This document shows, piece after piece, positions 3,499 to 15,940 of a stretch of 32,000 nucleotides of DNA; position 1 is the stretch's first letter, and each line of letters starts with the position of its first letter. Origin of the DNA: Simonsiella muelleri ATCC 29453 (GTDB lineage Bacteria; Pseudomonadota; Gammaproteobacteria; Burkholderiales; Neisseriaceae); assembly GCF_002951835.1 (NCBI RefSeq), contig NZ_CP019448.1:707293-739292 (forward strand), in the 5' to 3' direction. The notes below the pieces were generated by a model, which did no database searches, was not told where the DNA came from, and was given only the letters and a program-made list of their open reading frames with translations. Made by a program: the position numbers and the translations under genes.

Positions 3499-3603
3499 TA
3501 GCAGCTGCTGAAAAAAAACGTATCGGTTTGTGGGCGGACAAAAAACCACAAGAACCTTGGGTGTATCGTGCCAAAATTCGCGCCGAACAAAATTAGAACC
3601 TGT

Positions 3604-6420: not shown

Positions 6421-6606
6421 CAGCCTGAAACCTTTGCAAAACCCAAAAATTAACCTAAATCTCGTCATTCCCGCGAATGCGGGAATCCAATAGCAAAATT
6501 TAGATAATTGATTTTATTTGATTGATTAAAAATCTATTTGAGATTGAAAATGGATTACCGCCTACGCGGTAATGACGACGGATAGTTTTGCAAAGGTTTC
6601 AGCCTG
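6421..6606. mobile_element. MITE-like derivative (186 bp) of the IS5-group element at 14008-15211
   Basis: The ends GAAACCTTTGCAAAACCC (from 6426) and GTTTTGCAAAGGTTTC (6585-6600) match the IS termini. Both ends are flanked by AGCCT. There is no ORF. The interior carries two 8-bp-stem hairpins at 6467-6486 and 6554-6573. Confidence 0.7.
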
Positions 6607-13925: not shown

Positions 13926-14007
13926 AGTGCTTAAAATTCAGATTAGTACAGTGTTGTTCATGTCTTTTTGAAACGACTGTATAAAATACATCAAAAAAAG
14001 GCAGCCT

Positions 14008-15211
14008 GAAACCTTTGCAAAACCCCAAAACAATTCATTTGTTTTGAGGTTTTCACTATTTCAACACAAACACAACAAAATCAAGCAAAATAATCACACC
14101 AATCTCACTATAACAGCCCATTTTCAGGCTGCCTTATGCCCTTTCAGGCAGCAATCGGCGCAACAAGCCTTAACTTGTTTGCCGCTTTGAGCAAATTCAA
14201 ACAAATCACTTTCAAACCCATTTGCCCTTTGACCTTTTCTAGCCCAAAATAACTCGCACGCTTACATCTAAATATGCGATGCAAAATGGCAAAACTCTGT
14301 TCTACACGATAACGGATTTTCGCCAACTCCTTATTGCGCTCAATATCTTCACGCATCAAAGGTTTCTTGCGATGTGCTTTACGCATAATACCGTCTACTA
14401 ATTGATTTTTATCCAAAAATTCGCGATTGGATTGACTGTCGTAACCTTTATCCGCGTACACTTTGACACCCTGTTCAACCTTGTCCAACACGGTTTCTAA
14501 ATTGTTCACATCAGATGCATTCGCTAGCGTAACGTGAAACCCCTCTTCATCGGTACGTGCATGAAGTTTGTAGCCCAAATACCAATGCTTGCTTTTGATT
14601 GTCCATCTTGCGTCTTTGTCTTTACTGGCGGGGGTTTGGATCACTTCTTCGTTCTCATTGATTTCAATGGATTTTTTAAGTTTTCCACCTGCAGTTTGAA
14701 TAATGGTCGCGTCCACAATCGCCGTTTGCGCTTTTTCTACTTTGAGTTGATTGTGGGCCAGTTGTTGGTTGATTTGTTGATAAAGTTCGTCTGCCAAACC
14801 TTCTTTAATCAACCAATTACGAAAGCGGTTGAGTGTGCTGTGGTCGGGTAGATTCATTTCATCTGGAAATTGGCAAAAAATGATGAAATCTAAACGCGTA
14901 ACCAAACTGCGTTCCAATTCTGGGTCAGACAAACTGTGCCATTGTCCGAGCAAAATGGCGCGGAACATCGGTAGTAACGGATAGGCAGGACGACCGCCGT
15001 TATTGCATACATAGTTTACTTTATGGTTGGCGAGCGTTTGTTCAATGGCTTGCCAATCCAGAAGTTGGGTGATTTTAAGTAATGGGAAACGGTCTGTGTA
15101 TTGGTTAAGTAGGGTTTGGGCGGTGTGATAGAAAAAGCTGGACATGGAAAAATCCTCTAAATTCTTGGTAACAGAAATTTAGCGGATTTTTTGGGGTTTT
15201 GCAAAGGTTTC
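14008..15211 (-). mobile_element. IS5-family (IS5 group) insertion sequence, ~1.2 kb, inserted in a DUS
   Basis: 23-bp inverted repeats: GAAACCTTTGCAAAACCCCAAAA (14008-14030) and its complement (15189-15211). AGCCT flanks both ends (14003-14007 and 15212-15216). It has a single transposase ORF. Confidence 0.85.
14144..15145 (-). CDS. IS5-group DDE transposase (DUF772 plus DDE_Tnp_1)
   Basis: 333 aa. GGRPAYPLLPMFRAILLGQWHSLSDPELERSLVTRLDFIIFCQF is the classic IS5/InsH-like N-domain. Confidence 0.9.
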   Translation of the reverse strand: MSSFFYHTAQTLLNQYTDRFPLLKITQLLDWQAIEQTLANHKVNYVCNNGGRPAYPLLPMFRAILLGQWHSLSDPELERSLVTRLDFIIFCQFPDEMNLPDHSTLNRFRNWLIKEGLADELYQQINQQLAHNQLKVEKAQTAIVDATIIQTAGGKLKKSIEINENEEVIQTPASKDKDARWTIKSKHWYLGYKLHARTDEEGFHVTLANASDVNNLETVLDKVEQGVKVYADKGYDSQSNREFLDKNQLVDGIMRKAHRKKPLMREDIERNKELAKIRYRVEQSFAILHRIFRCKRASYFGLEKVKGQMGLKVICLNLLKAANKLRLVAPIAA

Positions 15212-15240
15212 AGCCTGAAAACGATGGATTGGTTTTCAGG

Positions 15241-15344
15241 CAGCCTGAAATCTTTGCAAAACCTCATCTTTGGCGTATTTCTTTGTGATGTACTTTTTTC
15301 ACGCTGAAACATATTTCAATAAATTTAATGTCTTGCAAAGGTTC
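15241..15344. mobile_element. Degenerate ~100-bp miniature copy of the same IS ends
   Basis: The left end is GAAATCTTTGCAAAACC (from 15246). The right end is GTCTTGCAAAGGTTC (15330-15344). The left flank is AGCCT and the right flank is the decayed form TAGCT. The right end overlaps the maf stop codon. Confidence 0.5.
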
Positions 15345-15940
15345 TAGCTTGAAAAAAATGGCGGTGTTGTCCAACCAATTTGTTGCAGCAATTGCATGGT
15401 CTCAAACACAGGCAAACCCATCACACCCGTGAAACTACCCGACAAGTTCGCCACAAATACTCCACCCAAACCTTGAATACCATATGCGCCTGCTTTGTCC
15501 ATTGGTTCGCCTGTGGCAATGTAGGCATGAATTTCATCTTGAGTTAACGATTTAAATTGAACCTGATTTTTCTGAATGCACGCGTACTCATGCTCTTGAT
15601 ATGACACACAAACTGCCGTCAAAACTTGATGAACGCAGCCTGAAAGTGCTGTTAAAATGCGTTGTGCGTCTGCAACGTCTTTGGGTTTACCTAAAATTTG
15701 GTTGTGTAATGCTACCACTGTATCCGCCGACAAAATAGGCACGTCCAATATATGTCGGGTGGAATCAGATTGTGCTGCCTGATTTTTTTCCACTGCCATA
15801 CGTTTCACATAATCATCAACAGATTCATTGGGTTGTGATGTTTCATCAATATTTGTGGTGCAAGTATGAACTTCAAAACCCAAATTGGTTAAAATTTCGC
15901 GGCGACGTGGGCTGCCCGATGCAAGTAAAATTTTTGACAT
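15344..15940 (-). CDS. maf: Maf-like nucleoside triphosphate pyrophosphatase
   Basis: 198 aa. ILLASGSPRRREIL...DKAGAYGIQG are the Maf family motifs. Confidence 0.9.
   Translation of the reverse strand: MSKILLASGSPRRREILTNLGFEVHTCTTNIDETSQPNESVDDYVKRMAVEKNQAAQSDSTRHILDVPILSADTVVALHNQILGKPKDVADAQRILTALSGCVHQVLTAVCVSYQEHEYACIQKNQVQFKSLTQDEIHAYIATGEPMDKAGAYGIQGLGGVFVANLSGSFTGVMGLPVFETMQLLQQIGWTTPPFFSS

Follow-up and report, generated by a model that had tools for sequence, protein, structure and literature searches.

The uptake sequence as a probable insertion hot spot for an IS1106-type element and its MITEs in Simonsiella muelleri

Introduction

No repeat is more abundant in the genomes of Neisseriaceae than the DNA uptake sequence (DUS), whose spread and persistence are still debated. 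Insertion sequences of the IS5 group are usually quoted as duplicating 4 bp of their target; IS5 itself targets YTAR with a 4-bp target-site duplication (TSD), and IS1301 targets AYTAG. The element described here resembles IS5 and IS1301 in the short palindromic target that its DDE transposase probably prefers, in this case C-AGSCT-G with a 5-bp duplication.

Insertion sequences that target REP repeats include IS1397, ISPpu9/10, ISPsy8 and ISRm22 (Tobes and Pareja 2006, PMC1525189). The same study found ISNm1106 to be loosely ('type 2') associated with REP-type repeats of Neisseria (Tobes and Pareja 2006). The system reported here is like the REP-targeting elements in that a palindromic repeat, abundant and for the most part intergenic, is entered at one set position, and in that the flanks allow the interrupted repeat to be put together again. 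Correia elements (NEMIS) are described in the Neisseria literature as having a TA duplication and 26-bp repeats. Like the MITEs described below, they are abundant non-autonomous inverted-repeat elements of Neisseriaceae intergenic DNA. However, their repeats are unrelated to those of the MITEs, which share termini with an autonomous insertion sequence (IS) in the genome and duplicate 5 bp.

Results

The element and its relatives

The window, by which we mean the whole 32-kb stretch of S. muelleri DNA that was analysed, contains an insertion sequence with the following parts:

14008..15211, minus strand: full-length IS5-family (IS1106-clade) insertion sequence, 1,204 bp, delimited by its inverted repeat, near-identical copies and an empty orthologous site
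14144..15145, minus strand: transposase gene, 333 aa, with DDE_Tnp_1 and InsH N-terminal domains (Pfam, NCBIfam)
14008..14030, plus strand: terminal inverted repeat GAAACCTTTGCAAAACCCCAAAA at the end distal to the transposase start, 23 nt, a perfect match to the opposite end
15189..15211, minus strand: terminal inverted repeat at the end upstream of the transposase start, 23 nt, perfect

The element has a single transposase ORF of 333 aa on the minus strand, named 'IS5 family transposase [Simonsiella muelleri]' in the source annotation. The protein matches PF01609 (1.2e-29, profile positions 5-200 of 200) and PF05598 (7.9e-20) in Pfam, scores 221 bits against NCBIfam NF033581 (transpos_IS5_4; cut-off 140), and is 54-58% identical over 100% of its length to Neisseria IS5-family transposases, one of which is named 'IS1106A3 transposase'. 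IS1106 and IS1106A3 of Neisseria have the same layout, a single-ORF DDE transposase of ~335 aa with the same Pfam architecture and ~55% identity in an element of 1.2 kb. The termini are also closely related (GAGACCTTTGCAAAA against GAAACCTTTGCAAAA), and relatives with intact flanks have 5-bp duplications as well. They differ in host genus and in the tip, which reads GAA here and GAG in IS1106 (the pattern GA(A/G)ACCTTTGC spans both variants), and the N. meningitidis copies that we examined lie outside DUS and have no clean duplication. The DDE domains, the inverted repeats with a single ORF at ~1.2 kb and the relationship to IS1106 all agree with the IS5 group and the IS1106 clade; the duplication is 5 bp instead of the 4 bp usually quoted for the IS5 group, and this is a property of the whole clade and not a quirk of this copy. 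An assignment of the tip GAGACCTTTGCAAAA to IS1655 was dropped, as IS1655 has been placed in the IS30 family (Neisseria literature) and the relatives found were of the IS1106 type.

Three copies of the IS are present in the S. muelleri genome and differ by 0-1 nt over 1,204 bp, indicating that transposition was recent. The element at 14008-15211 is an active IS of the IS5 family (IS1106 clade). Alongside it are non-autonomous derivatives, MITEs with the same 16-23 nt at their ends. The transposase, Ldh and Maf proteins encoded here map to the S. muelleri chromosome CP083930.1, an accession that a preprint gives for the genome of this species. An IS-internal DUS lies just 3' of the transposase stop codon (14122-14135, minus strand; exact match 14123-14134). 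Together with the flanking DUS at 13998-14011, to which it is complementary throughout, it forms a 14-nt inverted repeat (100%).

MITE and relic

The window has 7 occurrences of the 16-nt IS tip where 1.0 would be expected by chance, and tips of this kind bound the following derivatives:

6427..6600, plus strand: MITE, 174 bp, with 16-nt tips as in the IS and AGCCT at 6422-6426 and 6601-6605
15247..15345, plus strand: decayed MITE relic, 99 bp, with tips that match the consensus at 15/16 and 13/16 positions

The MITE sits within a perfect DUS dyad (TTTTCAGGCAGCCTGAAA), and its junctions read CAGGCAGCCT/GAAACC...GGTTTC/AGCCTGAAATA, where slashes mark the element ends. A second genomic copy (L003, 5865-6038) is identical at 169/174 positions. 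Being short and non-coding, with IS-type termini, an AGCCT duplication (5/5) and more than one copy, it has the features of a MITE of this IS. The junctions of the relic are CAGGCAGCCT/GAAATC...GGTTCT/AGCTTGAAAA, and its flanks are AGCCT (15242-15246) and AGCTT (15346-15350), the second repeat copy having decayed to 4/5. The relic was found in every strain or contig examined at this locus. Because it is present in all contigs that have an empty IS site (see below), it is older than the IS insertion.

Junctions and empty site

The insertion lies between the convergent genes ldh and maf, where the following features were recognised:

14003..14007, plus strand: left copy of the 5-bp target-site duplication, AGCCT, equal to DUS positions 5-9 (single AGCCT in the empty allele)
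15212..15216, plus strand: right copy of the 5-bp target-site duplication, AGCCT (single AGCCT in the empty allele)
13999..14010, plus strand: intact 12-mer kingDUS AGGCAGCCTGAA at the left junction, an exact match made up of 9 nt of flank and the GAA of the IS tip
15217..15249, plus strand: rest of the pre-insertion DUS inverted pair between convergent ldh and maf, from folding of the empty allele and the gene positions

The 12-mer AGGCAGCCTGAA has 26 exact copies in the 32-kb window, compared with ~0.07 expected for ≤1 mismatch, and these fall mostly within the dyad TTCAGGC(A/T)GCCTGAA. The kingDUS and simDUS forms (AGGCAGCCTGAA / AGGCTGCCTGAA) are strongly over-represented in the window and often form overlapping dyads. 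These counts agree with a previous survey, in which kingDUS and simDUS were about equally numerous in S. muelleri and 1,294 occurred as overlapping dyads; in that survey both forms were without functional verification (Frye et al. 2013).

The IS junctions read AGGCAGCCT/GAAACC...GGTTTC/AGCCTGAAAACG. In eleven contigs (L149, L150, L158-L166), which come from metagenomes and read assemblies encoding identical Ldh or Maf proteins, the site is empty and reads ...ATCAAAAAAAGGCAGCCTGAAAACGATGG... or, depending on the stretch shown, ...ATCAAAAAAAGGCAGCCTGAAAACGATGGATTGGTTTTCAGGCAGCCTGAAATC... Taking the IS and one AGCCT out of the window gives exactly this sequence, and the target is a perfect kingDUS, AGGCAGCCTGAA. 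The HMP draft assembly of S. muelleri (L148) carries the IS at this position. The insertion at the ldh-maf locus is polymorphic, with a precise empty site. The initial annotation of this DNA had written out the three junctions of the IS, the MITE and the relic, all of which matched when re-read. It had also proposed that removal of the element and one AGCCT restores a perfect DUS and had suggested a search for empty DUS at orthologous positions; the empty contigs supply both.

In the empty allele, the target DUS and a neighbouring DUS form an inverted pair that folds into a hairpin (-23.6 kcal/mol, z = -4.8). The IS occupies the left arm of this hairpin and the relic the right arm, where the DUS at 15238-15249 is completed by the GAA tip of the relic. 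Because the IS tip starts with GAA, the left junction rebuilds a complete DUS, as the initial annotation had stated, and the entire 15-nt king/sim dyad is kept (TTCAGGCAGCCT/GAAACC). At the right junction (GGTTTC/AGCCTGAA), 9 of the 12 DUS positions remain (CAGCCTGAA). At L003, the non-DUS site GCAGCCTGTA became GCAGCCT/GAA after insertion, yielding a perfect 10-mer DUS core from an empty site that matches at 9/10 positions. Judging from its sequence, the junction DUS may still work in uptake.

Length of the duplication

Because AGCCT is nearly palindromic, the ldh-maf locus by itself is ambiguous between a target duplication and an element end. The pentamer is almost its own reverse complement, and a repeat search reports an inverted repeat of 29 nt that contains one mismatch (97%). 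The direct repeat at this locus is formally AGCCTGAAA, 9 nt long, since the tail of the DUS and the IS tip both read GAAA. The repeats AGCCA, AAAAT, CGTCT and GGGCA at other copies establish that the duplication is 5 bp and that the first base of the element is G. Across the clade, direct repeats of 5/5 flank 20 insertions (11 full-length IS and 9 MITEs), with the pentamers AGCCT, AGGCT, AGCCA, AGACT, AGGCC, CGTCT, GGCCT, TGCTT, AAAAT, GGGCA and AAGCC. Where the pentamer changes on one side it changes on the other as well, and the centre base is the same on both, not complementary. Repeats at individual copies (left/right) are as follows:

L001, S. muelleri, same IS: AGCCA/AGCCA, non-DUS site TGCC-AGCCA-ATAC
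L003, S. muelleri, same IS: AGCCT/AGCCT, non-DUS site GCGC-AGCCT-GTAA, which holds the heptamer
L131, N. zalophi relative: AGGCC/AGGCC, AG-DUS
L132, N. zalophi relative: CGTCT/CGTCT, AG-DUS
L133, N. shayeganii: AGCCT/AGCCT, eikDUS
L136, 69%-identical element with the same tip: TGCTT/TGCTT, 11/12 DUS
L138, L136-type element: AAAAT/AAAAT, non-DUS
L174, 57%-identical element: GGGCA/GGGCA, in an organism without DUS, C-GGGCA-G
L175, L174-type element: AAGCC/AAGCC, in an organism without DUS, C-AAGCC-G
L322, Neisseria element: GGCCT/GGCCT, 10/12 DUS

For S. muelleri all three IS copies were viewed, and for N. zalophi 2 of at least 14. MAG contigs of the P0007 element are partly chimeric at the repeat (one left flank with differing right flanks), and from these only L136 and L138 were used. 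No clean TSD was found in the copies examined in N. meningitidis, N. weaveri, N. zoodegmatis and N. dumasiana; for each species only one or two sites were available, their flanks had been rearranged or had decayed, and they are neutral on DUS targeting.

AGCCT is a genuine 5-bp target duplication and not an element terminus, because the empty site has a single copy and the pentamers covary in 20 insertions. This agrees with the initial annotation, which read AGCCT as a target duplication in direct repeat and remarked on its length of 5 bp. A reading in which AGCCT or an outer T...A belongs to the termini, so that the true duplication is 3 bp (GSC) or absent and the ends carry DUS halves, is extremely improbable; the initial annotation had allowed for AGCCT as part of the termini. 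Such ends agree with the inverted repeat of 29 nt. They also agree with the MITE pairs L011, L028, L099 and L119, whose repeats are 4/5 with the mismatch at the dyad-centre, tip-adjacent base, and which fit a 3-bp model without any mutation, whereas the simple 5-bp model does not account for them. However, in L001, L131, L132, L136, L174 and L175 the tips would all have to have mutated in such a way that a perfect 5-bp repeat arose again, and AAAAT stands on both sides of L138. The single AGCCT of the empty site and the identical centre bases contradict such ends as well. A 3-bp TSD with T...A tips, which fits the irregular MITE pairs, was rejected because of the six full-length copies. It is possible that the irregular pairs, of the form TTCAGGCT/.../AGGCAGCCTGAA, reflect a king/sim flip of the dyad centre or conversion between junctions. 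The metagenome scan for intact MITE pairs yielded only 4 loci. A further locus, L218, reads AGGCT...AGCCT.

Target preference

Flanks were sampled from 8-kb loci around pattern hits and from MAGs, among the matches listed; the sample is opportunistic, and some orthologous sites may be counted twice. Among the matches listed, DUS-bearing Neisseriaceae loci gave 148 distinct tip-adjacent flanks, of which 58 lie in DUS and 90 (61%) do not. The 58 DUS flanks always have a register that would place the pentamer at positions 5-9 or 1-5 of the DUS: in 24 the tip is preceded by DUS positions 1-9, in 19 by positions 5-12 in reverse complement, and in 15 by the whole DUS in reverse complement. The 90 non-DUS flanks share a tip-adjacent consensus (C 50%, A 67%, G 51%, S, C 60%, T 63%), which is common to DUS and non-DUS sites, and 12/90 end in AGSCT. 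About two thirds of the matches listed in the genome-wide tip scan are chance matches in unrelated phyla, and these were reused as a negative control. The 149 control flanks obtained from such chance matches in unrelated genomes, among the matches listed, are without any consensus, and AGSCT is the final pentamer in 0/149. In most insertions the pentamer is preceded by C and followed by G, also at L174 and L175.

Landing in DUS was seen in at least five dialects. Many insertions are in king/sim DUS, and others are in AG-DUS (L131 and L132 in N. zalophi, L278, L292, L322, L323, L330), in eikDUS (L133 and L128 in N. shayeganii), in king3DUS (L321, with the TSD AGGCT within a perfect AAGCAGCCTGCA) and, in a rumen MAG (L086), in an over-represented repeat of the AGTCTGCCGGAA type. 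The register in each dialect tracks the position of the AGGCY/AGSCT pentamer, at positions 1-5 in AG and eik and 5-9 in king3; in king/sim, both pentamer positions are used, by dyad symmetry. CGTCT at L132 lies in an AG-DUS and is a poor match to AGSCT, which is more easily explained by DUS recognition.

Of the three IS copies of S. muelleri, a single one has landed in a perfect DUS, and non-DUS insertions by the same or related elements were found at L001, L003, L138, L174 and L175. The initial annotation had pointed to the flanks of the other copies as a check on its reading: a 5-bp repeat is present at both L003 (AGCCT/AGCCT) and L001 (AGCCA/AGCCA), and neither is in a DUS.

We compared these insertions with the background of motifs in king/sim-dialect loci. 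In these loci, 417/721 AGSCT pentamers (58%; DUS with up to 2 mismatches) and 388/427 CAGSCTG heptamers (91%) fall inside DUS, as do 15/17 rebuilt empty sites (88%). A preference for the pentamer only is rejected (p=0.008), whereas a heptamer preference fits the observed share (p=0.80): with 91% of heptamers in DUS, 15/17 is what preference for a 7-bp motif predicts. The initial annotation had concluded that the transposase targets the uptake sequence. What stands of this is the fixed register inside the DUS; the DUS itself as the target is not supported in that form, with 90/148 flanks outside DUS and p=0.80 for the heptamer background. The MITEs with perfect TSDs are in DUS-like sites (≥10/12) in 9/9 cases, a higher share than for full-length IS, and selection after insertion could also be the cause of this difference.

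Discussion

We consider it likely that a short intrinsic target motif, C-AGSCT-G, makes the DUS a hot spot for this family, with no recognition of the DUS as such. The DDE transposase would make 5-bp staggered cuts and would prefer a short, nearly palindromic target of about C-AGSCT-G, the pentamer of which would be duplicated. This motif coincides with the core of the host DUS, and the dyad offers it in both orientations. With most genomic copies of the motif belonging to DUS, these would become the dominant landing sites, in a constant register. Insertion after ...AGGCAGCCT by an element with a GAA tip leaves a complete DUS at one junction and the 9/12 copy at the other. We infer that the transposase reads the motif directly, and not the DUS as such, because non-DUS flanks share the consensus and because the heptamer background fits the DUS share.

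True homing to the DUS seems distinctly unlikely. The transposase or a host factor would then recognise more than a 7-bp core, or the hairpin or dyad, and would be co-adapted to each host dialect, so that the element would always travel with the uptake signal. The local DUS is indeed used in at least five dialects, including the poorly matching CGTCT in an AG-DUS, all nine MITEs with perfect TSDs are in DUS-like sites, and the GAA tip restores a DUS. Four full-length IS (that of the window, L131, L132 and L133) also lie in hairpin-forming inverted pairs of DUS. However, two of the three S. muelleri copies and 61% of the distinct flanks are outside DUS, the latter with an unchanged consensus, and the share inside DUS is accounted for by the heptamer null. 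The register in each dialect follows the pentamer, and motifs of this sort also serve as targets for a relative whose host has no DUS. The duplicated pentamer is also off-centre in the dyad, which is a misfit with targeting of a cruciform centre. Targeting of the hairpin or cruciform is not favoured on the same ground and because single-dyad and non-DUS sites are used too.

Selection by itself could also enrich for DUS if insertion were near-random and the survivors were copies in harmless places, such as intergenic DUS and terminators. DUS bases in the window are 60% outside ORFs of ≥120 aa, whereas only ~23% of all window bases are, and MITEs, which are older, are more often tied to DUS than the IS copies, which are young. 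Mere tolerance, however, would scatter insertions over intergenic DNA, whereas they occupy one exact phosphodiester register within the DUS, and the CAGSCT consensus at non-DUS flanks is absent from the controls. We therefore regard selection as the sole cause as very improbable.

In contrast to the REP-targeting IS, the repeat here is the DUS, the association with it is partial (58/148 flanks and 1/3 IS copies in the genome), and it is explained by a short motif at which insertions also occur elsewhere than in the repeat. A 'type 1' repeat-recognising element has every copy at the same repeat position, which is not the case here, and flanking halves that rebuild the consensus repeat, which is the case, as the sites, whether rebuilt or directly seen empty, are perfect DUS. 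In openly accessible full text, no description of the DUS as a target of an IS or MITE was found, in line with the initial annotation, which knew of no DUS-targeting IS. No published statement of a DUS hot spot for IS1106 was found in openly accessible full text, and the C-AGSCT-G motif and the 5-bp duplication of the IS1106 clade were not found documented there. The DUS hot spot of this IS/MITE family thus appears to be undescribed.

A useful and sober result is a defined target motif, C-AGSCT-G, with a 5-bp duplication for the IS1106 clade. Landing of the IS and its MITEs rebuilds a DUS at the junction, splits DUS-pair terminators such as the ldh-maf hairpin and adds incomplete copies of the DUS. 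In practice, the family confounds censuses of DUS, and it may contribute to their turnover. Landing in DUS would also give mobile DNA a built-in route to uptake by transformation. It may even be, though we find this rather doubtful, that the IS1106 clade is adapted to the uptake signal, its motif and GAA tip together placing a complete DUS beside every insertion. If so, the element and its MITEs would be taken up preferentially, would spread between strains and species by transformation, and would help to multiply the DUS.

The ldh-maf junction and its insertion site

The ldh and maf genes are convergent. The maf stop codon (TAG, minus strand, window 15344-15346) straddles the edge of the MITE relic, combining the relic's final two bases with the base that opens its decayed duplication; therefore, the old relic insertion sets the present 3' end of maf. 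Following insertion of the IS, the flanking DUS (window 13998-14011) and a DUS internal to the element (14122-14135) together make up I3, a new and perfect 14-nt inverted repeat whose arms lie 110 nt apart. The I3 repeat might substitute for the ldh-maf terminator hairpin that was split by the IS. In one strain that carries the empty-site allele (L167, about 3530-3545), AGGCTGTCTGAA is present where the IS target otherwise reads AGGCAGCCTGAA. This is natural variation in the target pentamer.

MITE and IS copies with irregular flanks

Four comparison loci contain MITE copies with non-matching flanks, TTCAGGCT preceding the element and AGGCAGCCTGAA following it:

L011, 5241-5440: irregular MITE pair
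L028, 920-1137: irregular MITE pair
L099, 1264-1465: irregular MITE pair
L119, 1419-1619: irregular MITE pair

The dyad-centre base is the sole difference between the repeat copies at these loci, and the tip-adjacent base is T in every case. A 3-bp duplication model would fit all four pairs, but it is refuted by the full-length IS copies. In an IMG/VR contig with an S. muelleri-type MITE (L218, 2402-2575), the flanks read AGGCT...AGCCT, with centre bases that are complementary, not identical. Recombination between inverted MITE copies, swapping their flanks, would yield this pattern. A collapsed IS contig from the Logan assemblies (L004, SRR016800_107) terminates on either side in GCAGCCT, read toward the tip that it borders. 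This probably stems from k-mer assembly of copies in both orientations, since the 23 nt of inverted repeat and the 7 bases of flank add up to k-1.

Palindromes, prophage-like neighbours and a possibly foreign flank

The MITE in the window contains two short palindromes (window 6467-6486 and about 6556-6576), one of which, ATTCCCGCGAATGCGGGAAT, has the same form as the Neisseria dRS3 repeat (ATTCCC-N8-GGGAAT), where Nf filamentous phages integrate in meningococci. An IS1106 copy of N. meningitidis (L147) is flanked by a repeat similar to this dRS3-form palindrome. In four MAG contigs (L134, L136, L137 and L142), the 69%-identical relative of the IS immediately adjoins an IS110-family (DEDD) transposase gene and Zot-like genes, a gene layout that resembles an Nf-type filamentous prophage.

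At position 5978 of L291, an IMG/VR contig of the AT/AG-DUS dialect, the kingDUS-type 9-mer AAGGCAGCCT adjoins an IS1106-type end (GAGACC tip); the DUS native to the locus are GCCGTCTGAA. One possibility is that a king-dialect species was the source of both this IS and the flank imported with it.

A candidate DUS dialect

The most over-represented 10-mers of L086, from a Neisseriaceae MAG of sheep omasum (RGIG6070), are AGTCTGCCGG, GTCTGCCGGA, TCTGCCGGAA and CTGCCGGAAA, with 6-7 copies in 8 kb. MITEs in this contig are located at the first five bases of the repeat AGTCTGCCGGAA. This repeat may be an undescribed DUS dialect, in which CGG replaces the usually conserved CTG.
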